This document shows positions 4,338-33,021 of a stretch of 33,021 nucleotides of DNA, piece by piece (the stretch's first letter is position 1; each line of letters begins with the position of its first letter). Below the pieces are notes generated by a model. The model was not told the origin of the DNA and ran no database searches. It was given only the letters and a program-made list of their open reading frames with translations. Location of the stretch: the IMG/VR virus record IMGVR_UViG_2651869781_000018; one strand, 5' to 3'. Source of the DNA: a virus (lineage: Duplodnaviria > Heunggongvirae > Uroviricota > Caudoviricetes). The position numbers and the translations under genes were made by a program.

Positions 4338-7160
4338 ATGACGGCAGAGTACATCAGGGACTGGCAACAACCGCGCCACGCAGTGGGGCGTGAAGGAACG
4401 GGGATCCCCGCTCCTGAATCCGCGCTTTCCTCCTGGCTGGATGCCTACCGGGTAGAGAACGAGCGCCGCCAGGAAATGGCTGATGCGGCGTTCTCCGCCA
4501 CGCCACTGGGCAACCTGATTAATAAAAGCCTGGACGCACAGGAAAAACAGGACAAAACCATCACACTGGCAGGAGACGCCAGAAAACAGGCACGCGGCGC
4601 GGTGGATGAAGCCATGGCCTCGCTGCGCCTGCTGCCGTCCTATCTGCGCGATCCGCTTATTCGCCACCTCTCCTTCCTGCGCAAAAAACAGGAAGCCGAT
4701 CGCCGGAAAGGCAAAAAGAGCTGGCAGGCGGAACGCTATGCACGCGGAACCCTGCGCAAAATATTCGAACGTCTGGATCGCACTGACGGACACTGGCTGA
4801 CACCGGGTTATCGCTCCCTTGCCGGACGCGAACGCCTGGACGATTTGCTTTACCTGCCGCAGCTCAACAAACACCAGATACAGACGCTGGCCACCATGAC
4901 GGCGGCGATGTTCAGCAGCACCTTCGAAAAACTCTGCGATGGCTTTGGCGCGACCGATGGCGAACTGACCATGGATGTAACGCTGAAGGCGTATCAGATG
5001 CTGGCCCGCATGGCGTTACACCTGCACATCATGCCTCCACATTATGACGCACTGACAACAGATAAAGACCGGAGGAACGAACCGGACACGGAGCTGCTGC
5101 CGGGCGCAATCCTTCGCCTGACCTGTGCGGAATGGTGGAAACGCAAACTGTGGCTGTTACGTTGCGAGTGGAGAGAAGAACAACTCCGCGCCGCCTGTCT
5201 GGTTTCCAGAAAAACATCACCCTATCTGAGCCAGGACGCGTTAAGCGAGTTTCGCGCACAGCGCGAGAAAACACGCGATTTCCTGAAAAGTTTCATGCTG
5301 GAAAACGAAGACGGGTTCACGATTGATCTCGAGACAGTGTATTACGCGGGAGTAAGTAACCCGGTTCACCGTAAGGCAGAAATGATGGCCACCATGAAGG
5401 GGCTGGAACTTCTGGCCGAAGCCCGTGGCGACAAAGCGGTGTTTCTAACTGTCACCTGCCCGTCAAAATACCACGCCACAACAGAGAACGGTCATCCGAA
5501 TCCCAAATGGAACGGGGCCACCATGCGCGACTCCAGCGATTACCTGGTTAACACGTTTTTTGCAGCGGTCCGCAAGAAACTGAACCGCGACGGCCTGCGC
5601 TGGTATGGCATCCGCACGGTGGAGCCTCACCATGACGGCACCGTGCACTGGCATATGATGGTCTTTGCTCATCCGGAAGAAATCGACACCATTGTGTCCC
5701 ACACCCGCGATATTGCCATTCAGGAAGATCGTCACGAGCTGGGTGATGATATTACCCCACGCTTTAAGGCGGAGTACGTCGACGGCTCAAAAGGCACGCC
5801 AACCAGCTACATCGCCACCTACATCGGAAAGAACCTGGACAGCCGCGCCGTGGATGGCATCGACCCGAAAACGGGCAAGCCACGCGTTGACCACGAAACA
5901 GGTAAATCAATGGCCGAGAGCGTGGAGCGAGCCATCGGCTGGGCGCGCCTTCACCGGGTCCGCCAGTTCCAGTTCTTTGGCATCCCCTCCCGTCAGGTGT
6001 GGCGTGAACTCCGCCGCCTTGCCAGCCAGATGGCACGCAACCCGGAAGGCCCGCAACGGCTGAAGGATGACGCAATGGATGCGGTACTCGCTGCCGCTGA
6101 TGCCGGATGTTTTGCCACCTACATTGAAAAACAGGGTGGCGTACTTGTTCCGCGCAAGGACTACCTGATTCGCACAGCCTACGACCTCGCAGATGAGCTG
6201 AACGATTACGGCGAACAGAGTGTACAGATTTACGGGATCTGGTCGCCATTCATCGGGGAATCCTCCCGTGTGTGCACGCATCCGGATAACTGGAAGCTGG
6301 TAAGACGTAAACCGGAAGCGGAAGACAGCGCCCGCGAAAATGGTTTTGACCTTCAGGGCGGCCCTGCCGCCCCTTGGACTCGTGGCAATAACTGTCCCCG
6401 TGTACAGGAAACAGGCAACAACGGGACAGAACAGCCGGAAGAACGGCCAGCACCGTGGCCGCAGCTTCCTGACGGCGTTGAAGTAAATGAATGGATGCGC
6501 TCACTGAAACGGCACGAACGCCGGGCGCTGATGCGTTCGCTTCGTGACAAACAGGCAAAAAACAGCAGCGATGAAATGCAGAACTGGACACAGAGCCGCA
6601 AACAGCAGCGGCCTTTGCCTGATAACCACGAGTTACTCGCTAAAGAATGGCGGGAGTCTGCTGAATCTCTCGGCCTGCATATCGGTGAACAACAGATGCA
6701 GCACCTGTTACGGGGCGGCAGTCTGTACGTTGACGGCAGCATCATTGCACCGCAGGGATTTGAAATTGTACGCAAACCGGATACCCGCCCGGACAGCCGA
6801 ATCACGCAGCTCTGGCAGCGTCTGAGCCGTAATCATGGCGTAAGCAGCACGGAGATCCGCCATAACCCGGTCGCCAGCTATCTGGCACAGCTGGGGGCAT
6901 CAGACCCTGAAGCCGCCGCACGCCTGGCATCCACACTTCAGCAGGACCAGAACACCATGAAAACACCCGTTACCGTGCTTTCTGACATGCTGCGCGCCAT
7001 CCGCGACGCAGAGCACGCACAGAGAATCAGTGAAACCACTGAACGCGCCAGCCGCAAAGCAGACCTGCTGCGGGGTGGCCTGACCAGTGGAAACAAAAAA
7101 CAGACAGAAACGGGACTCACGAATCCCGTAAATGAGCAAAAAACGCGCAGCGATATATGA
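4338..7160 (+). CDS. A: Rolling-circle replication initiator endonuclease, P2 gpA family (HUH relaxase-like), 940 aa
   Basis: HUH metal-binding motif HWHMMVF and paired-tyrosine motif YIATYIGKN; position and size consistent with P2 A but about 180 aa longer than P2 A as remembered, with a charged, Q/R-rich C-terminal extension. Confidence 0.9.
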   Translation: MTAEYIRDWQQPRHAVGREGTGIPAPESALSSWLDAYRVENERRQEMADAAFSATPLGNLINKSLDAQEKQDKTITLAGDARKQARGAVDEAMASLRLLPSYLRDPLIRHLSFLRKKQEADRRKGKKSWQAERYARGTLRKIFERLDRTDGHWLTPGYRSLAGRERLDDLLYLPQLNKHQIQTLATMTAAMFSSTFEKLCDGFGATDGELTMDVTLKAYQMLARMALHLHIMPPHYDALTTDKDRRNEPDTELLPGAILRLTCAEWWKRKLWLLRCEWREEQLRAACLVSRKTSPYLSQDALSEFRAQREKTRDFLKSFMLENEDGFTIDLETVYYAGVSNPVHRKAEMMATMKGLELLAEARGDKAVFLTVTCPSKYHATTENGHPNPKWNGATMRDSSDYLVNTFFAAVRKKLNRDGLRWYGIRTVEPHHDGTVHWHMMVFAHPEEIDTIVSHTRDIAIQEDRHELGDDITPRFKAEYVDGSKGTPTSYIATYIGKNLDSRAVDGIDPKTGKPRVDHETGKSMAESVERAIGWARLHRVRQFQFFGIPSRQVWRELRRLASQMARNPEGPQRLKDDAMDAVLAAADAGCFATYIEKQGGVLVPRKDYLIRTAYDLADELNDYGEQSVQIYGIWSPFIGESSRVCTHPDNWKLVRRKPEAEDSARENGFDLQGGPAAPWTRGNNCPRVQETGNNGTEQPEERPAPWPQLPDGVEVNEWMRSLKRHERRALMRSLRDKQAKNSSDEMQNWTQSRKQQRPLPDNHELLAKEWRESAESLGLHIGEQQMQHLLRGGSLYVDGSIIAPQGFEIVRKPDTRPDSRITQLWQRLSRNHGVSSTEIRHNPVASYLAQLGASDPEAAARLASTLQQDQNTMKTPVTVLSDMLRAIRDAEHAQRISETTERASRKADLLRGGLTSGNKKQTETGLTNPVNEQKTRSDI

Positions 7161-7208
7161 AGCGCGCACAAAACAGGCAAAAACGGGATTTCAGAATCCC
7201 GTAAACGA
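7097..7208. repeat. Two ~39-bp direct repeats (about 7097..7135 and 7170..7208), each containing a hyphenated dyad ACGGGA-N8-TCCCGT, straddling the stop codon of A and lying just upstream of parM
   Basis: AAAACAGaCAgAAACGGGActcacGAATCCCGTAAAtGA versus AAAACAGgCAaAAACGGGAtttcaGAATCCCGTAAAcGA read directly from the sequence; 73-bp period. Confidence 0.6.
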
Positions 7209-7236
7209 TTAATTAATCAACATAAGGAAAACCGAC

Positions 7237-8196
7237 ATGAAAATTTACATCGACGACGGCTCCACCAACATCAAGCTGGCATGGACTGAGAACGGCGAAC
7301 GCCGCAACGCCATCAGCCCGAACAGCTTCAAGTCGGAATGGTCTGCGCCGTTCGGTGGCTCGCAGCCTGCTAACTACATGCTTGATGGCGTGCGCTATGG
7401 TTTTGATCCGGTCAGCGATCGCTTTGTCCAGACGACCGACACGCAATACCAGTACAGCGATGTGAATGTCATTGCCATTCATCACGCGCTGGTCAAATCA
7501 GACATCACGCCACAGGAAGTGGATGTGGTTGTTACCCTGCCACTGAGCGAATATTTCGACACAAACGCACAGCCGGACATGGCCAACATCAACCGCAAAA
7601 AAGCGAACGTCATGCGCCCGGTGGAGTACCAGAACGGCGAAGCATTCACTATCCGTAACGTACGGGTTATGCCTGAATCCATTCCGGCTGGCTTTAAAGC
7701 ACTGGCTGACATGAGTCCGTTTGAATCCCTGCTGATTGTGGATTTGGGCGGAACCACGCTGGATGTGGCAAAGGTTCAGGGGCAACTGGCAGGTATCAGC
7801 CAGGTGTTTTGCGATCCACACGTAGGCGTTTCTCTTATGGCCGATGCCGTACTGTCGGTGATGGCCACTAACGGTATGCGCACCAGTCACCACATCGCCA
7901 ATACCATTATCGAACATCGCCATAATGAAGCCTGGCTGCGCCAGCACATCCACAATGACGCGCATTACGCCAGCCTGATGGCGGTTATTCGTGAAAAGGA
8001 AGAAACACTGAAACAACGCGTGATCCGCGCGCTGGCGGTTTTTTCGGGTTACGGGCGGGTGATGGTTGTCGGTGGCGGGGCGGAGATTGTGGCACCCGCT
8101 ATCCGCGAAGCCTGCGGAGTTAATGCGACTTTCATCGCGGACGGGGTGCCACAGTTTGCTCTGGTTAATGGGCTGTACGCAATGGACAAGGAGTAA
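7237..8196 (+). CDS. parM: ParM/StbA-family actin-like segregation ATPase
   Basis: 319 aa; N-terminal phosphate-1 motif IYIDDGSTNIKLAW, then SPNSF, YSDVNVIAIHHAL, PESIPAG, LIVDLGGTTLDVA, VMVVGGGAE and FALVNGLY all align with R1 ParM (StbA) as remembered; RBS AAGGA upstream. Confidence 0.85.
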   Translation: MKIYIDDGSTNIKLAWTENGERRNAISPNSFKSEWSAPFGGSQPANYMLDGVRYGFDPVSDRFVQTTDTQYQYSDVNVIAIHHALVKSDITPQEVDVVVTLPLSEYFDTNAQPDMANINRKKANVMRPVEYQNGEAFTIRNVRVMPESIPAGFKALADMSPFESLLIVDLGGTTLDVAKVQGQLAGISQVFCDPHVGVSLMADAVLSVMATNGMRTSHHIANTIIEHRHNEAWLRQHIHNDAHYASLMAVIREKEETLKQRVIRALAVFSGYGRVMVVGGGAEIVAPAIREACGVNATFIADGVPQFALVNGLYAMDKE

Positions 8197-8200
8197 ACCA

Positions 8201-8512
8201 ATGACGACACCAACCAGACGGATAAGTTTCTATCTGAAGCCCGCCGCCGTCAAGAACGAAGGAGAAGCATGCGCCTGGCTGGACAGCCTTACACCAGAAG
8301 CCCGCAAAAGCGGCCAACGCGTGGCTTTTCTGGCCGGGCTGGCACTTCTGAAGACGAATCCGGCAGAGGCTTACCGACTGGCCGCATGGGCTGATGATGA
8401 GATGTTACCTGTGACACAAATCAGCTCAAAAAAGTTTGAAGCACAGTCTGCACCAGTGGCTAAGATAACCAGCCAGATGGCTGGGAATATCCGGGCGTTA
8501 TTTCCTGAGTAA
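8201..8512 (+). CDS. parR: ParR-like ribbon-helix-helix centromere-binding adaptor
   Basis: 103 aa starting MTTPTRRISFYLKP (ATG 5 nt after the parM stop); ISFYLKP / DSLTPEARKS / AFLAGLAL resemble R1 ParR N-terminal RHH region as remembered. Confidence 0.7.
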   Translation: MTTPTRRISFYLKPAAVKNEGEACAWLDSLTPEARKSGQRVAFLAGLALLKTNPAEAYRLAAWADDEMLPVTQISSKKFEAQSAPVAKITSQMAGNIRALFPE

Positions 8513-8640
8513 AAGCATCTGCGCGAAAAATGCTCACGTTTATAGAGACAGTATCATTCCATTTGGCACACTTACTTCAATAATCGATCTGTTAAACAAA
8601 TAGATTGTCTATTATCTATCGATTAAAACGATCAATTATC

Positions 8641-8668
8641 TTGACAGTAATGTGCCTTTTTGTAAGAT
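8641..8668 (+). promoter_or_regulatory. Candidate sigma70 promoter (TTGACA, 16-bp spacer, TAAGAT), preceded by operator-like dyads (8583..8640) and followed by a dyad overlapping the predicted start site (8673..8702)
   Basis: Perfect -35 hexamer and a 4/6 -10 hexamer at correct spacing read from sequence; flanking ATAGA-N3-TCTAT and CGCAtTGT-N10-ATAATTGCG dyads. Confidence 0.4.
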
Positions 8669-8710
8669 CGTTCGCATTGTGAGCGACAAGATAATTGCGC
8701 GGCATTGTCC

Positions 8711-8859
8711 ATGCAAAACGCCCCAATAGCAGCAACTATTGGGGCGTAAAACTCGGTCGGACTCACTTAACCTGATATGCGTGCCTTCCGAAGTAAATCA
8801 AAATGTGCGTCGTATATTTTATTGCTTACACGCACCTCTGTAAAGGCACGCATATTTTT
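8711..8859 (+). ncRNA. Structured leader or small RNA candidate: 13-codon mini-ORF wrapped in a perfect 12-bp hairpin (8718..8747), then a long nested stem-loop (8777..8853) ending in TTTTT immediately before the RBS of the 89-aa gene
   Basis: Inverted repeats ACGCCCCAATAG/CTATTGGGGCGT and ATGCGTGCCTT/AAGGCACGCAT with inner GTGCGT/ACGCAC, followed by a T5 run; seen in sequence. The function (sRNA, attenuator or terminator of parMR) cannot be decided from sequence. Confidence 0.3.
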
Positions 8860-8876
8860 CCTATGAGGTAAATAAA

Positions 8877-9146
8877 GTGCGGGCTAAAACAGGTATTTGC
8901 AAGAACCCTCATCGTTATAATCCAACATTTCTGTCTCTCCCTGAATATCAAGGACAAGAAGGTCGGCACAAATGCGCTGCCTGTGCTTTTGAGCTAGGCA
9001 TAAAAGATGCGCTTGAAGGACGCGCTATGGCTCAGAATGATTTAGTTTTAGCTAACATTCCGTTTAGCCAGGCTGGAACTGTAAGGCACAGAGATGCCTA
9101 TGAAGCATATGTTCGTGGTTGGCGATTAATAAACAGCAACAATTGA
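8877..9146 (+). CDS. Hypothetical 89-aa protein in the A-to-cos cargo slot (GTG start)
   Basis: GTG start with GAGGT Shine-Dalgarno 7 nt upstream; followed by a canonical hairpin plus T-run terminator; no family recognised. Confidence 0.55.
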   Translation: MRAKTGICKNPHRYNPTFLSLPEYQGQEGRHKCAACAFELGIKDALEGRAMAQNDLVLANIPFSQAGTVRHRDAYEAYVRGWRLINSNN

Positions 9147-9149
9147 TAC

Positions 9150-9178
9150 TTTTGAAGCGCCGATAAGGCGCTTTTTTT
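9150..9178 (+). terminator. Rho-independent terminator (GAAGCGCC-GATA-AGGCGCTT followed by TTTTTTT)
   Basis: GC-rich perfect stem and T7 tract directly after the 89-aa ORF stop. Confidence 0.65.
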
Positions 9179-9179
9179 G

Positions 9180-9632
9180 TTTGCACGATAGTGCACAAGT
9201 TTGCACAATTTTTTTGAACGACTTTTTGTACTTCCGGCCCGCGTGGTGGCTGGATCCGTCAAGGATCCGTACGTGCACAAAAAAACGCGTTTTTTCTGCG
9301 CGCAGGTGACGGGGGAACAGCCCGCGTTTCAGGGGGTAAATAGCATTCCCTGAACGATGTCGCAGAGATACAACAGAATGGCCATATTTCTCACGCTGAG
9401 CATGAAAAAGACGTGAGAGCTTTTGATTTGATGGGGTGAAAGGTAAGGCCGTCAAAATCGCACTGAGACGGCGAGAACATGCAGTCAACGCGGTGGGATT
9501 GCGTAAGAGTCTGACTGTCGATGATGGCAATCAGCAGGAAAGCGTCGTGAAATTATCTGATTGATACAGGAGCTGGAGAGTCGGGGCATAAATTTTTTAT
9601 GCCCCGGCGAAGCAGCAGACAAGCGAAGCGCG
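9180..9632. other. Non-coding region expected to contain cos (the packaging site), by synteny between the A-side cargo and the 3' end of portal gene Q; exact cohesive-end site not assigned
   Basis: Position equivalent to P2 cos; contains TGCAC-rich direct/inverted repeats (9181..9215), the palindrome AAAAAACGCGTTTTTT (about 9283..9298), a G-rich 19-mer GGTGACGGGGGAACAGCCC (about 9307..9325) with partial resemblance to remembered P2/186 cohesive ends, and a hairpin CGGGGCAT..ATGCCCCG (about 9582..9606) downstream of Q. Confidence 0.3.
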
Positions 9633-10679
9633 TCAGGATGTGGGCTGGGTGTCTAACAGTGCGTAAGGGTTAAAGCGGATCACCTCTTCGCCAAGCCAGT
9701 CATTGATGTGCTTCATGGCCTCCATGACGGGCATCAGCTCGTTAATTGCGTAAACCCGCGCGGCCTTCTCCACATCACCAAACGCACTTTTTTCGCCCGG
9801 CATTGCCCCCATCAGTTGCGGCGGAACGCGGTGCGCAGCCAGCACATCATCACGGGATGCCGCCTTAACATTCATGAACTCATCCTTTGCGGTGATCTGC
9901 TGGAACGGCAAAATTTGCACCCCCTCTTTGCCCCCGTTGGGCGCATGAATGAGCACGTTTTTAAACGCACCACCACCACGTGCCCCCTGTAGCGTTTCTT
10001 TCAGGGAGTCCATGCTTTCGCGGTTTACCTGCGCTGCACCGATGTAGATGATGCACCCGGCGTGGGATCCGTTGTCGTAATACAGTTTTCTGAACATGTC
10101 CGCCGAATGAGACAGGCTGGCCGAGAGTAATGCGCCAAGATATTCCGGCATGCCGTAGATTTCCTGGTTAATATCCGGATTCATCAGGTGGCACACTTTG
10201 CCAGGGCGAAACTGGAACGCGTCCTTGCCATCCTGCACATACCACCATGATTCAAGATCGCTTCCGCGTCGCATGTATTTCGCCAGGGCGTGCCGTAATT
10301 TAAGCGGTTCACCGAGCATATTGCTTCGAAGCTCAAGGAATGCGTTACCGAACACAAACCAGTCCAGCGCCAGCACCGAGAAATCCTGCCGGGAAAGCAG
10401 CGGGTGCGGAATATAGCAACCGAGCAATACATTGCGCTTAAAGTAAAGCGCAGACTGATGCCAGGACGTTTGCCGGGCAGCTCTTGCCAGACCGTACCAG
10501 TCCACCGGGGTTTCATACCACCGCCCGTTATCAGCACAGTACATATTGTCCAGCAGGTCATGCCCGGTCAGGCGATAAGGACCATCAAATGTGAATGCAC
10601 TGAGCGATGATTCTTTCCTGAGCGCATCAGCGAGATCAATGCGTGAACTCATGCGCACTTTTTTATTTTTTCTGCTCAT
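9633..10679 (-). CDS. Q: Portal protein (capsid portal vertex), P2 gpQ-like
   Basis: 348 aa; extensive motif match to P2 Q as remembered (NGRWYE, FVFGNAFLE, LMNPDINQE, GMPEYL, KLYYDNG.HAG, HRVPPQLMG, WLG.EVIRF). Confidence 0.9.
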   Translation of the reverse strand: MSRKNKKVRMSSRIDLADALRKESSLSAFTFDGPYRLTGHDLLDNMYCADNGRWYETPVDWYGLARAARQTSWHQSALYFKRNVLLGCYIPHPLLSRQDFSVLALDWFVFGNAFLELRSNMLGEPLKLRHALAKYMRRGSDLESWWYVQDGKDAFQFRPGKVCHLMNPDINQEIYGMPEYLGALLSASLSHSADMFRKLYYDNGSHAGCIIYIGAAQVNRESMDSLKETLQGARGGGAFKNVLIHAPNGGKEGVQILPFQQITAKDEFMNVKAASRDDVLAAHRVPPQLMGAMPGEKSAFGDVEKAARVYAINELMPVMEAMKHINDWLGEEVIRFNPYALLDTQPTS

Positions 10680-23002: not shown

Positions 23003-23530
23003 ATGATGCACTTAAAGAACATAAAAGCGGGTAACGCTAAAACACTGGAACAGTATGAGTTAACAAAGAAACACGGAGTTATCTGGCTTTACTCTGAGGA
23101 CGGAAAAAACTGGTATGAGGAAGTGAAAAACTTTCAGCCAGACACCATAAAGATTGTTTACGATGAAAATAATATTATTGTCGCCATCACCAAAGATGCA
23201 TCCACGCTTAACCCTGAAGGTTTTAGCGTCGTTGAGGTTCCCGATATAACAACCAATCGTCGGGCCGATGATTCCGGTAAGTGGATGTTTAAGGACGGAG
23301 CTGTGGTTAAACGGATTTATACGGCTGACGAACAGCAACAACAGGCCGAATCACAAAAGGCCGCGGTACTTTCCGAAGCAGAAAGCGTTATTCAGCCACT
23401 GGAGCGCGCTGTCAGGCTGAATATGGCGACGGATGAGGAACGCGCACGACTGGAATCATGGGAACGCCACAGTGTTCTGGTCAGCCGTGTGGATACAGCA
23501 AATCCTGAATGGCCACAAAAGCCTGAATAA
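23003..23530 (+). CDS. G: Tail fibre assembly chaperone G
   Basis: 175 aa; strongly similar to the divergent paralogue on the minus strand (HLKNI.AGN.KT.EQY.LTK...[18 protein letters not shown]). Confidence 0.85.
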
Positions 23531-23534
23531 AAAT

Positions 23535-23556
23535 TAAGGCCCGATAGTGGGCCTTG
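23535..23556. terminator. Hairpin (AAGGCCC-GATAGT-GGGCCTT) between convergent G and G', likely bidirectional terminator
   Basis: Perfect 7-bp GC-rich inverted repeat between two converging stop codons. Confidence 0.5.
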
Positions 23557-23558
23557 TC

Positions 23559-24092
23559 TCATTCTGGTTGTTCGGGAAACGTTACTGGCAGGCTGGAGGT
23601 GTCTGTAGATTCGACTTTCTGCGCATAGAGCATCCACTCGGTTAATTTTTGTTTATTCTCGTCGGAAATGATACCCAGCCGTAGCTGTGAGTCCCATAGC
23701 TGGGTTTTATCCCTGACAAGTTGCAACAGGCTTTGCTTTTCATTCTCTGCCTGCTGCCTCTGTTCCTCCTCGGTATAAGTTCGCTTTATCACCGCGCCAT
23801 CTTTGAACATCCAGTTACCCGAAATATCAGCCCGTCTATTGGCTGTTATATCAGGCAACTCAACAACGCTTAAACCTTCTGGATTAATTGCCGATACATC
23901 CTTATCAATAGCAACAATAACTCCCTCTGCTGTGTAAGCTAGCTTTATTGTATCTTCCTGAAAGTTTTTCACTTCCTCATACCAGTTTTTTCCGTCTTCA
24001 GACCATAACCAGATAACATTAAAATTCTTTGTTAGCTGATATTGTTCAACGGTTTTTGGATTACCTGCGACAATGTTTTTTAAATGCTGCAT
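23559..24092 (-). CDS. Alternative tail fibre assembly chaperone G' (silent in this orientation)
   Basis: 177 aa paralogue of G on the opposite strand inside the invertible segment. Confidence 0.85.
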
Positions 24093-24095
24093 AAG

Positions 24096-25040
24096 TTACA
24101 CCTGCGCCACGTTATACCATGTGCCATTGATGTATTTTTGTATTGGTCTGAATACAGCCGGATCATCGCCATCAACAGAGCCAATAATGCCAAGCCCTGT
24201 AATTACATGACCTGATTTCTCATACATCACGCCTTTTTGCATGGTCTGAACAACACGAGTGCCCAGGCGAATATCTCGTACATAGCGAGAATCCGATTCA
24301 GCTTTGGTATATGCACCAACATCTCCCGCAGAGGGTTTGCGGGTTGTGGTATAAAACTCTGACCAGTCAGCCTCAAATCCATAACCATCTCGCGCTGAAC
24401 GATAATAAATACCGCCGTTCTTATAATTCACGCGTAATTGTACAGCCGGGCAGCTACCCGCGTTCATATTGAAATGAAGAATTAATGTTGATGCGCCTTT
24501 TAGGTCTGCATCATAAACACCGCTATTCCAGTTCCAGCCAACAGCTTTATCATTTGCAACCCTGTTTCCTGTCTGCCCTAAAGCAAATGCAGGTTGCAGG
24601 TTTTTCGTGTTGTAGTCTCGTCGCCAGCCAGGAGCGTAAGCATCACCATGATTAATATAAGTGAATTGAGCGTTAGTGATTCCGCCACCACTGGAAGTGC
24701 TTGGTGTTGTTACACGGATGGTCATGGCACCTTTATTACCCATAACCTCAATAACGCAACCTGCAAGATGAATAGTTCCACAGCCAGTATCGGTTATAAT
24801 TTTATTATTGCCATACGACCATGAACATTTGCACATCCAGTATGGGTGATTGAATGCCCCTTGAGAATCCAGCCATTCAATCAATTGTGCCGTTGTCCAG
24901 TTCCCTGCACCTGTACTAATAGAACTGTGAAAAGCGCGACATGCACCAATATTTTTTGTGAAGGTATCTTTTCCTGGAATATCTGCGCCGTTCTGGTTTT
25001 TCTGCAATGCGCCTGAAGCCTGATTTATCGTTTCCTGCAA
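24096..25040 (-). CDS. Alternative tail fibre variable C-terminal cassette H' (promoterless; would be fused to the constant part of H after inversion)
   Basis: Begins [21 protein letters not shown], the same junction sequence found inside H ([22 protein letters not shown]); ends ...[14 protein letters not shown]; the annotated start codon is TTG and is probably not a true initiation site. Confidence 0.75.
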   Translation of the reverse strand: MQETINQASGALQKNQNGADIPGKDTFTKNIGACRAFHSSISTGAGNWTTAQLIEWLDSQGAFNHPYWMCKCSWSYGNNKIITDTGCGTIHLAGCVIEVMGNKGAMTIRVTTPSTSSGGGITNAQFTYINHGDAYAPGWRRDYNTKNLQPAFALGQTGNRVANDKAVGWNWNSGVYDADLKGASTLILHFNMNAGSCPAVQLRVNYKNGGIYYRSARDGYGFEADWSEFYTTTRKPSAGDVGAYTKAESDSRYVRDIRLGTRVVQTMQKGVMYEKSGHVITGLGIIGSVDGDDPAVFRPIQKYINGTWYNVAQV

Positions 25041-25058
25041 ACCGAGGTTTTAGATAAT
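25033..25058. promoter_or_regulatory. Right crossover site of the invertible segment (TTCCTGCAAACCGAGGTTTTAGATAA)
   Basis: Reverse complement of the left site over the half TTCCTGCAAACCGAGG; lies just upstream of the invertase gene; coordinates approximate (+/-2). Confidence 0.7.
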
Positions 25059-25093
25059 GGCCGTTTCTGACCTGCATGGCATGATTTACGCTT

Positions 25094-25699
25094 TTGGACG
25101 GGAGATTCAGCGTGCTGATTGGCTATGTAAGGGTATCAACAAATGACCAGAATACAGACCTGCAACGAAACGCTCTTGTTTGTGCAGGATGTGAACAAAT
25201 ATTTGAAGATAAATTAAGCGGGACAAAGACAGACCGACCGGGATTAAAACGCGCTTTAAAGCGCCTTCAAAAAGGTGACACGCTGGTTGTCTGGAAACTG
25301 GATCGCCTCGGGCGAAGCATGAAACATCTGATTTCTCTCGTCGGGGAACTACGGGAGCGAGGGATTAATTTTCGCAGTCTGACCGACAGCATAGATACAT
25401 CTTCTCCAATGGGGCGTTTTTTCTTCCACGTGATGGGTGCCCTGGCTGAAATGGAACGTGAATTAATTGTTGAACGTACACTGGCCGGACTGGCAGCAGC
25501 GCGCGCACGGGGGCGCACAGGCGGACGTCGCCCGAAGCTGACAAAAGAACAGCATGAGCAAATAGCAAGGCTGATTAAAAACGGTCACGACAGAAAACAA
25601 CTGGCAATAATTTACGGCATTGGTACATCGACGATTTATCGTTACCACCCCGCAGGAGAATCAAGCGGAACAATAGAGAAGAGTCAGAAAACAAAATAA
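25094..25699 (+). CDS. Serine DNA invertase, Gin/Pin/Cin/Hin (Din) family
   Basis: N-terminal catalytic motif LIGYVRVSTNDQNTDLQRNAL, then GDTLVVWKLDRLGRS and a C-terminal HTH; very close to Mu Gin as remembered. Annotated start is TTG at 25094; a GTG at about 25112 (M-LIGYV) with GGGAGA RBS is an alternative. Confidence 0.9.
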   Translation: MDGRFSVLIGYVRVSTNDQNTDLQRNALVCAGCEQIFEDKLSGTKTDRPGLKRALKRLQKGDTLVVWKLDRLGRSMKHLISLVGELRERGINFRSLTDSIDTSSPMGRFFFHVMGALAEMERELIVERTLAGLAAARARGRTGGRRPKLTKEQHEQIARLIKNGHDRKQLAIIYGIGTSTIYRYHPAGESSGTIEKSQKTK

Positions 25700-26235: not shown

Positions 26236-29079
26236 TCAATCTTTATCGTAAAAACTGCCACGCCCGGCACGGGCGCGCCGTTCCATTTCTGCCCTGACCA
26301 TTTCACCGACCAGTTTCGCCAGTTCGCGGGGATTCTGCGTAACAACGTTATGCAGATGAACATGAATTTCACCGCCAAATCCTGAGGCAACAGGTTCCCG
26401 GTTACGCGAAGGTGTTGGGGCTGATGCCACTGGCGATCGTATGGCCTCCGCCACCGGGCGGGAGCTGGCCGCAACAACAGGGACCAGCGCCGGAGGCAGC
26501 GGGGCCGGAACCACAGGCGTGATATTAATTGCGGGGGCAGGCTTACTGACCTGCGCAATCTTCCGCTCCTGCCACTCCCCACGAACGGCAAGTGCGCGGG
26601 GCAGGTTCTTAAAGACAATATCGCCGGGGCCAATGCGTTTTTTCGTCTCATCAACCAGCTTACCTGTGTTATCAGCAATTTTGCTGAGTCTGCGTAGCGT
26701 ACCGGTATTGCTGTCTGTGAGCGGTTTGTTGTCTTTGGGTTTATCGCCTCCGGTGCCATTGCCATTTTCCACAGGCTTCGGCGGATTGATTTTCGCCAGG
26801 TCCCCCTGAAGCAAGGCAACCTTGTCCTGAAGAATGGCCGCACGCTGTGCGTCTTCGATTTTCTTGCGCGCCCTTTCCGCTTCATCCGGAAGCACACCAA
26901 GCTTTTCAAGTATCCACGCCAGCGTATCCAGCAACATTTTTGCAGGCGTCAGAACAAGCTGTAACGCACCCCCAAGAACGTTACCGAATACCTCGCCAGC
27001 ACTGGTGCATTTATCCAGCGTTTCCTTGCTGAACTCCATCGGTAACAGCAGCGATTTAAACCAGTTAAACACCTGGCTGATCCCGCTTCCGATTGCGTCA
27101 AAAACAGGGCCAAACCGTTCAAAGGTTTCGCGCAACGGGGCCAGTCGCTCCATAATCCCACTGAACACCCCGGCATAAAACGCCTTGATGGGTTCCCAGT
27201 ATTTCCAGATGAGAACCGCCGCAGCGACAAACGCTGCAGCAATCAACCCGACCGGACTGAACAGCGCCCCGATAGCGCCTCCCAGCAACGAGATGGAACC
27301 TGTTACCATTCCCCATAGTGCTGGCAGCACCCTGACGACATTCATTGATCCGGTCAGGAGAGAAAAACCAAGACGTAACGTGGCCAGTTTCCCGTGAAGC
27401 ACACCAATAACCAGCGACAACGAGCCAACCGTTGCAGTCATTGCCAGCAGCGCACCGCCTGCTATCAGCAGCTGGCGCGTCAGTACCGGATGAGCCTGCG
27501 CCAGCGCCGTCACCTTTGAAACTACCCGCGTGAGCCACTGCGTGACAGAACGCAGCGGGCCGTCAATCAGATCTGCAATGCGGATGCGCAACCCTTCCCA
27601 TGCACTGCTGAGTGATTTCAGATCGCCGTCAAGGTTGTTGGCCATAACCTTTGCCGTGCGTTCAGCCTCACCGCGCGCGCCTTCAAGTTCTTTTCTCAGT
27701 TTGGGTAAGGAGCCGTCACCTGCCGCATCAACGAGGGCCATAAATGATGTGAAAGCCTCTTCTCCGGCAATGTCCTTAAAGAACGATACCCGGTCAACTT
27801 CCCCGTATTTGCGGGTGGCTTTATAAAGGTCGGCCAGCACATCCTCCATCGGGCGCATTTTGCCGTTCGCATCAGAGACGGACACACCCAGCTCTTTCAG
27901 CGCTTCTGCTGCCGCCTTTGGCGGTGATGCCAGACGAGCCAGGCTGGCACGCATTGCCGTCCCGGCATCACTCCCTCTGATGCCCATATTCGCCAGCACG
28001 CCCGCCATCGCTGCGGCCTGCTCCAGCGATATTCCCAGCTTACCCGCCACCGGACCTGCATATTTCATGGTTTCGCCCAGTGCGCGAAGGTCAGTGTTGG
28101 TACGGGTAAACGCTGCGGTGAGTGTGTCACCAACCCGGTCCATCTGGTCAGCAGAAAGGCCGAACTGCGTCAGGATATTTGAGCCAATATCCGCCGTCTC
28201 GCCGAGATCCATGCCGCCAGCCGTTGCCATGCTCAGCACGCCCGGAAGCGCAGCCTGAATGGCCTGCGGAGTGAAGCCAGCCATTGCAAGAAATGCCTGC
28301 CCACTGGCGGCATCGCCTGCGGTGAACTGCGTTTCAGAGCCAAGTTTTAACGCCTGCTCACGCAGCGCCTTAAACTGCGGGCTGTTCTGGTCGATTCGCG
28401 TCAGTGCCTGAACGCGGGACATCTCTTTCCCGAACCCGATCGCAGGCTGCAAAAAACGCCCGGCAGCATAGCCGCTAGCCGCTGCCGCACCAATTGCCAG
28501 CGCACCACCTGTTTTCAGTTTTCCCGCGGTTTCCTGCGCGCGCGAATACCGCTCACGCGCACGTGTTACACGCGCAAGCGCCTGCCGTTCGCGTTCAAGC
28601 TGGTTGTTGTACTGTTCGGTGCGTCTGATGGCCTGCTGGATGGTGTTATCGCTGCCTGTCAGGGAAATGCCGTGGCGTTTCAGCTCTCCGCCAAGCTCCC
28701 GCATTTTCTGAATTTCCCGTGTACGCGATTCATTCAGGCGTTCAAGCCGGGTGCTTAACTGCTGCATCAGCTTTTGTTGTTTTTCGCTGAGCACTGTACC
28801 CGTGCGTTGTAACTGATTAAGGGCGTTAAGCTGGCGTCGTGCTTTCACGATGCCCGCATCCGCTTTACTGACAGCGTCACGGGCGCGCTCAAATGAACGC
28901 GCCTGACGCTCGAGATTTTTGATCGCCCCCTGCGTTCGCTGGATGGAGTCACCAAACTGCCCCATCAGGCGGCGGGCGTTTTCGGCAGGTCGGGTCAGCC
29001 TGTCAACGGCGCTGAAAGCGACCCGGATATCAAGAGTCTTCATTGTCTGCATTCCCGCTGCGAAGTGCCGCCCGCTCAC
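26236..29079 (-). CDS. T: Tail tape measure protein T
   Basis: 947 aa, alpha-helical/coiled-coil N-terminal half, Ala/Gly-rich hydrophobic middle segment; downstream of the E/E' frameshift pair. Confidence 0.85.
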   Translation of the reverse strand: MSGRHFAAGMQTMKTLDIRVAFSAVDRLTRPAENARRLMGQFGDSIQRTQGAIKNLERQARSFERARDAVSKADAGIVKARRQLNALNQLQRTGTVLSEKQQKLMQQLSTRLERLNESRTREIQKMRELGGELKRHGISLTGSDNTIQQAIRRTEQYNNQLERERQALARVTRARERYSRAQETAGKLKTGGALAIGAAAASGYAAGRFLQPAIGFGKEMSRVQALTRIDQNSPQFKALREQALKLGSETQFTAGDAASGQAFLAMAGFTPQAIQAALPGVLSMATAGGMDLGETADIGSNILTQFGLSADQMDRVGDTLTAAFTRTNTDLRALGETMKYAGPVAGKLGISLEQAAAMAGVLANMGIRGSDAGTAMRASLARLASPPKAAAEALKELGVSVSDANGKMRPMEDVLADLYKATRKYGEVDRVSFFKDIAGEEAFTSFMALVDAAGDGSLPKLRKELEGARGEAERTAKVMANNLDGDLKSLSSAWEGLRIRIADLIDGPLRSVTQWLTRVVSKVTALAQAHPVLTRQLLIAGGALLAMTATVGSLSLVIGVLHGKLATLRLGFSLLTGSMNVVRVLPALWGMVTGSISLLGGAIGALFSPVGLIAAAFVAAAVLIWKYWEPIKAFYAGVFSGIMERLAPLRETFERFGPVFDAIGSGISQVFNWFKSLLLPMEFSKETLDKCTSAGEVFGNVLGGALQLVLTPAKMLLDTLAWILEKLGVLPDEAERARKKIEDAQRAAILQDKVALLQGDLAKINPPKPVENGNGTGGDKPKDNKPLTDSNTGTLRRLSKIADNTGKLVDETKKRIGPGDIVFKNLPRALAVRGEWQERKIAQVSKPAPAINITPVVPAPLPPALVPVVAASSRPVAEAIRSPVASAPTPSRNREPVASGFGGEIHVHLHNVVTQNPRELAKLVGEMVRAEMERRARAGRGSFYDKD

Positions 29080-32577: not shown

Positions 32578-32645
32578 GCAACTTAGACATATTAGCTCAA
32601 ACTTAAACTGGCAAGTTTACAGTATAGAATTAAACATAAACGACG

Positions 32646-32675
32646 GTCCGCTCCGTGTCAGAAGCGGACTTTGTC
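32646..32675. terminator. Hairpin (GTCCGCT-N10-AGCGGAC) with flanking T-rich runs between convergent D and the truncated AT-rich gene
   Basis: 7-bp inverted repeat followed by TTTGT on the plus strand. Confidence 0.4.
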
Positions 32676-32697
32676 ATCCCTATGTAAGGTTGATTGC

Positions 32698-33021
32698 TTA
32701 ATACGCATTTAATTTAAATTTGTATTTGCCTTCTATGTAATGGATAAATTCAATTATGCTTTTTTCTATCGCATCTAATATATGAATATATCCATCCCGA
32801 TTTAAGGTCCTATCCAACTCAAAGTGATGAACTATCCCATGTCTATATTGTATGATTTCAGAAATTCGATTCTCAAGAAAATCAACTGATTTTCCAATTC
32901 TTTTTTTCTTATAAAGAATCGCTCTCACATCTATATCCAGCCACTCTTTATATGCTTTGTTTAGGTGGGTTAAGTTTTGAAAAGTGTAATTTCTTGCAAT
33001 AACACTTTCTATTGAAATATT
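32698..33021 (-). CDS. 3' portion of a foreign-looking, AT-rich gene truncated by the window edge; C-terminal region carries an R-x4-H (HEPN-like) motif
   Basis: Minus-strand frame stays open from the stop at 32698 to the window end (manual translation ...NISIESVIARNYTFQNLTHLNKAYKEWLDIDVRAILYKKKRIGKSVDFLENRISEIIQYRHGIVHHFELDR...), so the annotated GTG start at 32928 is not the real start; composition visibly much more AT-rich than the prophage. Confidence 0.45.
   Translation of the reverse strand, partial: NISIESVIARNYTFQNLTHLNKAYKEWLDIDVRAILYKKKRIGKSVDFLENRISEIIQYRHGIVHHFELDRTLNRDGYIHILDAIEKSIIEFIHYIEGKYKFKLNAY

Follow-up and report, generated by a model that had tools for sequence, protein, structure and literature searches.

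Among the closest described systems to the locus analysed here are the ParMRC (StbA/StbB) partition loci of plasmids R1 and NR1; in R1, parC is laid out as two clusters of 11-bp direct iterons. Actin-type loci have also been described in elements that reside in the bacterial chromosome. The SrpMRC locus of the SXT/R391 elements stabilises the excised, rolling-circle form of these elements and is expressed only together with excision and replication (Carraro 2015, PMC4489591), while the AlpAC/alpS system of the Corynebacterium glutamicum prophage CGP3 is switched on early, its adaptor recognising a site that precedes the operon, and phage DNA is replicated efficiently only when the system is present (Donovan 2015, PMC4446434).

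A parM/parR cassette is likewise on record for P2-like prophages of Escherichia coli, where RefSeq and P88/Xuanwuvirus records label the one gene 'plasmid segregation protein ParM' and the other 'plasmid partitioning/stability family protein', and PHROGs has a family for each. Rousset 2022 lists StbA and Plasmid_stab_B loci in its tables and remarks that the cassette may permit a plasmid state, and phage P88 was singled out by Pfeifer 2021 (PMC7969092) on account of its partition genes, with the suggestion of 'episomal and integrative states'. In the paper on phage phiSM, the gene appears among the 'fitness' factors, and the P88 paper does not discuss the cassette. The genes, their frequency and the leading idea of a plasmid state are therefore already in the literature and RefSeq, and the cassette itself is not new. 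What is added here is the status of parMR as part of the phage backbone, its linkage to replication gene A, the domain pattern of ParR, a candidate two-block centromere with cross-genus conservation, and a quantified dominance of integration. The locus was analysed in a stretch of 33,021 nucleotides (IMG/VR record IMGVR_UViG_2651869781_000018), hereafter the window.

Identity and genomic setting of parM and parR

The deduced product of parM possesses both domains of the ParM family (Pfam StbA_N, 9.7e-81, and the ParM C-terminal domain, 3e-68) together with the nucleotide-binding motifs, and it matches phrog_691 in PHROGs (2e-88). Its alignment with R1 ParM (PDB 1mwk; E 7.7e-92, 46.2% identity) extends across residues 1-316, with the ATPase motifs DDGSTNIK, VMPESIPAG, DLGGTTLD and GGGAE all kept. 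By its sequence, this protein is an R1-type actin-like ATPase of type II partition systems, and its polymerisation is predicted. Directly after parM, with a gap of 4 nt between the parM stop codon and the ATG at 8201, follows the gene for a small protein with a predicted N-terminal RHH domain, matching Plasmid_stab_B, the StbB/ParR family of Pfam (9.8e-24), and phrog_2515 (2e-59). A mechanically listed open reading frame places the parR start at a TTG codon (8066), which was rejected, the homologues and RefSeq entries all beginning with MTTPTRR. When compared with solved structures, the single ParR sequence gave no match, and a profile built from 16 homologues matched weakly (E 0.004) the structure of pB171 ParR (2jd3) over residues 9-75. 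NCBIfam yielded no match above its cut-off, and Rfam, with gathering and E-value thresholds, placed no RNA family within or around the parMR locus (Table 1).

Table 1. Coordinates of the parMR locus and of the adjoining features in the window.
Feature	Position	Strand	Description
Replication gene A	4338-7160	+	940 aa, rolling-circle initiator; Phage_GPA 5.8e-132, phrog_91
Candidate parC block 1	7094-7135		42-nt repeat; palindrome ACGGGA-N8-TCCCGT at 7110-7129; inside the 3' end of gene A
Core between blocks	7136-7166	+	Gene A stop codon at 7158-7160; weak promoter-like hexamers only
Candidate parC block 2	7167-7208		42-nt repeat; palindrome ACGGGA-N8-TCCCGT at 7183-7202
Leader and ribosome-binding site of parM	7208-7236	+	Conserved ATTAATTAATCAA...AAGGA
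parM	7237-8196	+	319 aa, actin-like partition ATPase
parR	8201-8512	+	103 aa, centromere-binding adaptor, RHH-type
Variable cargo slot	8513-~9166		Promoter-like site, hairpin, 89-aa ORF (8877-9146) of no assigned function
Conserved non-coding stretch	9182-9632		Upstream of portal gene; 92-97% identity to relatives
Portal gene	9633-10679	-	Large terminase also on right side

Several ParR alleles occur, with identities ranging from 98% down to 42%; that of the window is 83% identical to the P88 allele and 53-56% to the O157/HUSEC alleles. Alignment of these alleles revealed an invariant N-terminal strand (RRISFYLKP) followed by conserved helices, a hypervariable linker at about residues 66-95, and a conserved C-terminal tail, N-I-x-x-L-F-P-E, which is retained as N-(I/A)-x-x-(L/F)-F-P across all alleles and four genera. 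Such a pattern is expected for a DNA-binding domain joined by a flexible linker to a putative ParM-docking tail. The AF2 model of the ParR monomer, a low-confidence one (pLDDT 56), leaves the linker disordered, has a C-terminal helix spanning residues 87-100, and agrees with the alignment pattern at the level of secondary structure only. The first-pass annotation of the window had read the two genes as an R1-type cassette at 7237-8512, composed of a ParM/StbA actin-like ATPase and a ParR-like RHH adaptor, a reading that would have failed had Pfam searches returned no significant hits to either family; the matches reported above are significant for both, and the two identities and the coordinates are borne out.

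The element is a P88-like (Xuanwuvirus) prophage of the P2 family, and the window also encodes an integrase, a repressor, a Cox protein, a P2-type capsid protein and gpD. The cassette had been placed between gene A and cos. It does lie between A and the portal side of the genome, the side on which cos is expected, but cos itself was not found: a presumed P2 cos 19-mer had no match in the window, so that cos is placed by P2 synteny alone and would be expected in the conserved non-coding sequence that precedes the portal gene.

In every relative examined, including prophages of E. coli, Salmonella, Plesiomonas, Hafnia and Serratia, parMR adjoins gene A; a search of genome contigs with a single-protein pattern returned 9 loci, and the wider set was obtained from the protein database and contig look-ups. 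Among the E. coli relatives, homology runs through A, parM and parR, ends exactly at the parR stop codon and resumes at 9155-9182, which delimits an exchangeable slot starting immediately after parR. The contents of this slot differ among P88, 569R5, HUSEC2011, the window and the Plesiomonas, Hafnia and Serratia loci, the last carrying HicAB. The P2-like prophages of Plesiomonas, Hafnia and Serratia share the order gpA-parM-parR-variable genes-portal-terminase, with ParM proteins 58-62% identical to that of the window. An E. albertii prophage encodes A and ParM proteins with 98-99% identity to their counterparts in the window, as against 30-36% for the portal and terminase proteins, a mosaic boundary which implies that parMR travels with the replication module; the identities of A and ParM also co-vary between loci. 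In other words, parMR is a part of the replication/early module of P88-like P2-family phages and lies outside the exchangeable cargo, for its position and sequence do not vary among relatives, as the content of a hotspot does. The proposal that it fills the slot in which P2 carries tin and old is accordingly not borne out; a backbone module, parMR, had here been counted as hotspot content.

The cassette was detected in 1303 of 5426 complete E. coli genomes (24%), among them O157:H7, EPEC E2348/69 and ST131 strains, with parM covered over at least 80% of its length in 1279 of the 1303 positive genomes (98%). Together with its flanks, it aligns at 94-97% identity with a group of records that includes Escherichia phage P88, Xuanwuvirus P884B11 and Citrobacter phage phiSM. 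Outside the P88-like group, a tblastn search with ParM of 50,697 phage records found a relative only in phage D6. An identical copy of the cassette is carried by O157:H7 strain FRIK944, in a prophage located beside btuC which has another integrase and another gene A allele, pointing to a mosaic phage family. Both reading frames are intact in ten out of ten close sequences, and the dN/dS of parM (0.05-0.16) indicates purifying selection on parMR. The pseudogenisation in related prophages that would have spoken against the first-pass annotation is therefore not seen, and the survey of P2-like relatives it had called for recovered the same cassette at a constant position after A. Its view of such a cassette as unusual for a P2-like phage does not stand, given the frequency in E. 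coli and the presence in Plesiomonas, Hafnia and Serratia. Defective O157:H7 remnants have lost the genes from portal through baseplate and have kept int, A, parM and parR intact; this retention by elements unable to form particles may be neutral, or may hint at some other use of the genes.

A candidate centromere upstream of parM

The two 42-nt blocks that precede parM are direct repeats with 81% identity, spaced by 73 bp, and each contains the same palindrome. The palindrome is matched exactly in both blocks, against a chance expectation of about 1. The pair of blocks is kept in nine out of nine close relatives, one copy being mutated in EC4115, and in complete relatives (34-37 kb) the palindrome occurs at these two sites only. 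A third exact CGGGA-N8-TCCCG site of the window (28415-28432), considered as a distant copy of the centromere, is absent from these complete relatives and was treated as a chance occurrence.

The arrangement extends beyond E. coli. Pairs of the form GGGA-N8-(T/A)CCC, 72-73 bp apart, are present in the Plesiomonas (6338 and 6410) and Hafnia (7873 and 7946) loci, where the surrounding DNA has diverged, and in both of them parM is likewise preceded by ATTAATCAA and then (A)TAAGG(A); the Serratia locus has repeats of a different kind upstream of parM. In plasmid-borne relatives (about 50% ParM identity), the corresponding region is composed of three 11-bp iterons, a TTGACA/TATAAT promoter and three more iterons, with a block-to-block distance of 72-73 bp that matches the register of the phage blocks. 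The phage region thus looks like a reduced parC from which the strong core promoter has been lost, and we regard it as a candidate centromere. It displays two visible candidate ParR sites, as against the 6-10 iterons of plasmid parC, and two such sites could simply constitute an operator.

When read on the minus strand, both palindromes are scored as hairpins resembling terminators as well. Neither a consensus promoter in the 76-bp gap between A and parM nor a plus-strand terminator-like site, be it between A and parM or after parR before 9154, was predicted, which suggests read-through from the early/replication operon, with which parMR would be co-transcribed. As no promoter was identified, the timing of expression is a guess; literature searches on the O157 copy (CP-933T) yielded no expression data specific to parM or parR.

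Possible roles of the locus

On balance, we lean slightly towards a working ParMRC system whose target is the phage DNA while it is transiently circular, following infection or excision. An integrated prophage segregates with the chromosome, and the substrate must therefore be an extrachromosomal circular phage genome. In P2, gene A replicates the circular genome into monomeric circles. ParR dimers would bind the two palindrome blocks upstream of parM (7094-7208), which would serve as parC, and the conserved C-terminal tail of ParR would dock on ParM. Filaments of ATP-bound ParM would then lengthen between a pair of ParR-parC complexes and drive sister phage circles apart, the circles being those present after infection or excision, during rolling-circle replication by gene A. 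In this way, the locus would disperse or position the circles and prevent their loss at division before integration or packaging. We infer from the sequence both the binding of ParR to the upstream repeats and the biological role of the locus. Of the three options raised by the first-pass annotation, stabilisation of replicating phage DNA fits best, as far as inference allows.

The layout of the locus, with the candidate parC followed by parM, a short gap and parR in the same order as in R1, supports a partition reading. Against it, a benefit of segregation is not obvious in a short lytic cycle, and P2, 186 and most other P2-family phages do without such a locus.

A second of the three options, already suggested by Rousset 2022 and Pfeifer 2021, is a facultative phage-plasmid, that is, a prophage maintained over many generations as an autonomous low-copy plasmid instead of integrating. 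It is unlikely, even though a complete partition locus is a hallmark of plasmid prophages and the nearest phage homologue outside the group belongs to the phage-plasmid D6 (47% identity). Also on its side is pZ1323PEC0009-2, a circular 'plasmid' record of 34,461 bp that comprises a whole P88-like genome joined at attP. This is, however, the one phage-sized circular record found, and a lone circle of phage size is how an induced or excised phage looks in a long-read assembly. When its attP junction was used as the query in the circular-junction test for an episomal form, run on assemblies, 442 genomes matched, in none of which was the junction contiguous, all matches breaking at the att core. 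In the 5426 complete E. coli genomes, 1441 of the 1443 parM copies are located on the chromosome and two on plasmid records. Of the 72,556 plasmids in PLSDB, 7 have the cassette, and the majority of the seven are very large (0.2-1.4 Mb) or mis-assigned pieces of chromosome. An integrase is encoded at every locus that reaches the left end. Replication is of the gene-A rolling-circle type, controlled by immunity, and no replicon with copy control of the plasmid type came to light. Two further candidate episomes, 'Escherichia phage 520873/503458', considered because they stand as separate records, were rejected as degraded prophages taken from chromosomes, in which genes are split, IS100 has inserted and a yecA flank remains. 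The integrated state dominates, and the extrachromosomal existence in lysogens that characterises phage-plasmids is not what these genomes display.

It is quite unlikely that the module has been repurposed, with ParR serving mainly to regulate transcription, at the end of the early operon or at gene A or its origin, and ParM taking on a function other than segregation, such as a cytoskeletal action upon the host. A reported precedent for the repurposing of ParMR (bioRxiv 10.1101/2025.06.27.661541) is the cyanobacterial CorMR, and the presence of only two candidate ParR sites, one of them overlapping the 3' end of gene A, would suit such a change of role, as would the intact cassette of the defective O157:H7 remnants. 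Such a change of function sits poorly with a ParM that keeps all nucleotide-binding motifs at 46% identity to R1 ParM, with a putative ParM-docking tail of ParR present in all alleles and genera, and with a two-block layout whose 72-73 bp register matches plasmid parC regions; no positive sign of a host function was noticed. The last option of the first-pass annotation, anti-phage or anti-plasmid cargo mediating exclusion, defence or incompatibility, draws on the location of the site within the A-to-Q interval of P2, which Rousset 2022 defined as a defence hotspot. It is very unlikely and finds no support here: neither ParM nor ParR has a PADLOC match (E up to 0.1), and the cassette is fixed beside A, with the variable slot following parR, and conserved across genera together with the replication gene. 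In addition, tblastn with the phage ParR did not match plasmid ParR proteins, a phage-specific lineage that makes competition with plasmids for centromeres improbable. Least credible of all, to the point of being negligible, is the idea that the cassette is a functionless remnant of past recombination with a plasmid, in view of the intact reading frames, the low dN/dS, the full-length parM in 98% of the carrier genomes and a gene order held at 58-62% protein identity in other genera.

Going beyond a working ParMRC on transient circles, we tentatively propose that a quarter of E. coli P2-like phages employ an R1-type actin filament machine in their own replication cycle, which would separate and position the circles produced by gene A, or would carry the unintegrated genome through divisions up to its integration, by means of a two-site centromere. 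In that proposal, part of the minimal centromere is embedded in the replication gene. If it were true, a small integrative phage of E. coli would become a genetically tractable model for studying how a cytoskeleton encoded by a phage segregates DNA. The role of the locus bears on how temperate phages handle their extrachromosomal phase on how sharp the boundary between prophages and plasmids is, and on the way in which surveys of hotspots are to be interpreted.

Comparison with known partition systems

The cassette of P88/Xuanwuvirus and of the E. coli prophages in RefSeq is the same as that of the window, sharing 94-100% of its nucleotides and likewise located after A; nothing essential differs, the window having its own ParR allele and its own downstream cargo. 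The nearest phage homologue outside this group, the StbA protein of D6, belongs to a true P1-like plasmid prophage of 91 kb, whereas the phage of the window is integrative. With the R1/NR1 loci, the window shares the order of parC, here a candidate, parM and parR, and the repeated blocks upstream of parM. It differs from them in its host replicon, an integrative P2-family phage, in a ParR too diverged for tblastn to reach the plasmid ParRs, and in a centromere candidate made of two palindromes 73 bp apart instead of two clusters of direct iterons, with a core that has no consensus promoter and into which the end of gene A extends.

SrpMRC resembles the window locus in being an actin-type locus of a normally integrated element, its centromere, like the candidate one of the window, preceding the gene for the ATPase. 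SrpM and SrpR are, however, only distant from R1 ParMR, whereas the ParM of the window is a close R1 relative; SrpMRC also forms part of the int operon under SetCD control in a conjugative element, whereas the window belongs to a phage. CGP3, like the window, is an integrated prophage that encodes an actin-like filament protein and an adaptor, and its AlpAC system belongs to another actin-like subfamily, with a different gene order and a host of a different phylum, and has no sequence relationship to the window locus beyond the fold family. By analogy, the role of the window locus is most likely equivalent to that of SrpMRC or AlpAC.

The variable slot downstream of parR

The stretch from 8513 to 9166, downstream of the partition cassette, is the real variable slot of this lineage, and the elements located in it are listed in the table together with those of the tail-fibre region. 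The 89-aa reading frame within it had no match in Pfam, PADLOC or NCBIfam; an accessory gene that is as yet uncharacterised, or a defence gene of that kind, could lie here.

Features of the variable slot and of the tail-fibre region
Feature	Coordinates	Strand	Description
Promoter	8641-8668	+	consensus-like, TTGACA-16-TAAGAT; in variable slot
Hairpin	8718-8747	-	perfect, 12-bp; terminator-like on the strand given; in variable slot
Inverted repeat	arms 8775-8787 and 8843-8855		perfect, 13-nt; in variable slot
ORF, 89 aa	8877-9146		phrog_3941 (PHROG labelled 'unknown function'); in variable slot
Terminator	9154-9174		3' of the 89-aa ORF
Tail-fibre region, invertase included	23003-25699		two sets of tail-fibre and tail-fibre-assembly genes in opposite orientation, beside serine DNA invertase
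Serine DNA invertase	25094-25699		Resolvase, 1.5e-50

ParR alleles, gene A and a third palindrome

The ParR proteins of E. coli form many alleles, with identity ranging from 98% down to 42%, while ParM is at least 94% identical; up to three parMR cassettes occur per genome. The allelic variation of ParR is clustered in the linker, at about residues 66-95 (8396-8485 in the window), and the DNA-binding strand and C-terminal tail are fixed among the alleles, the upstream candidate ParR sites being likewise constant. The replication protein encoded by gene A consists of 940 aa in the window and of 789 to 946 aa across relatives, and its C-terminal part matches a separate PHROG, phrog_6857 (labelled 'unknown function'). 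The final codons of the gene carry parC-like block 1, a candidate centromere block, and this extension of gene A may have a connection with the partition locus. A third exact palindrome, CGGGA-N8-TCCCG, lies at 28415-28432 within the tape-measure gene; since it is absent from the complete relatives L005 and L006, it is probably a chance occurrence.

Related prophage DNA in other records

The relative L005 (NZ_CP148288.1, pZ1323PEC0009-2) is a 34,461-bp circular 'plasmid' of an E. coli isolate from a cat, which comprises a whole P88-like phage genome closed at attP, with integrase, a Dam-like methylase with Com, and a Hok/Gef gene among its contents. In E. coli O157:H7 EC4115 (NC_011353.1, 2499422-2520000), the parMR copy resides in a defective P2-like remnant flanked by yecA and a tRNA-Leu/Cys/Gly cluster. 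There, the genes from portal through baseplate were lost by an IS3-associated deletion, and the genes for the tape measure and gpD are disrupted, but integrase, repressor, A, parM and parR are all still intact. In the mosaic prophage of E. albertii NBRC 107761 (NZ_BBMY01000003.1), the replication module, parMR included, shares 98-99% identity with that of the window, whereas the adjoining portal and terminase are only 30-36% identical, which places the recombination boundary after parR and before the packaging genes. Finally, a 226-kb contig (NZ_JBQPOM010000071.1) of an assembly labelled Vagococcus sp. WN89Y, a Firmicute, bears an E. coli-type P88-like prophage region (97% identical), most likely reflecting contamination or mislabelling of that assembly.

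Ends of the window and the tail-fibre switch

The window begins at the integrase stop codon and therefore includes neither an att site nor host flank. At its right end (32600-33021), GC content falls to about 44% and a minus-strand ORF past gpD runs off the end; this is probably a further accessory region, close to the end where the attachment site lies. The tail-fibre region, with its invertase, is an invertible host-range switch of the Gin/Cin type, ordinary in this phage group.
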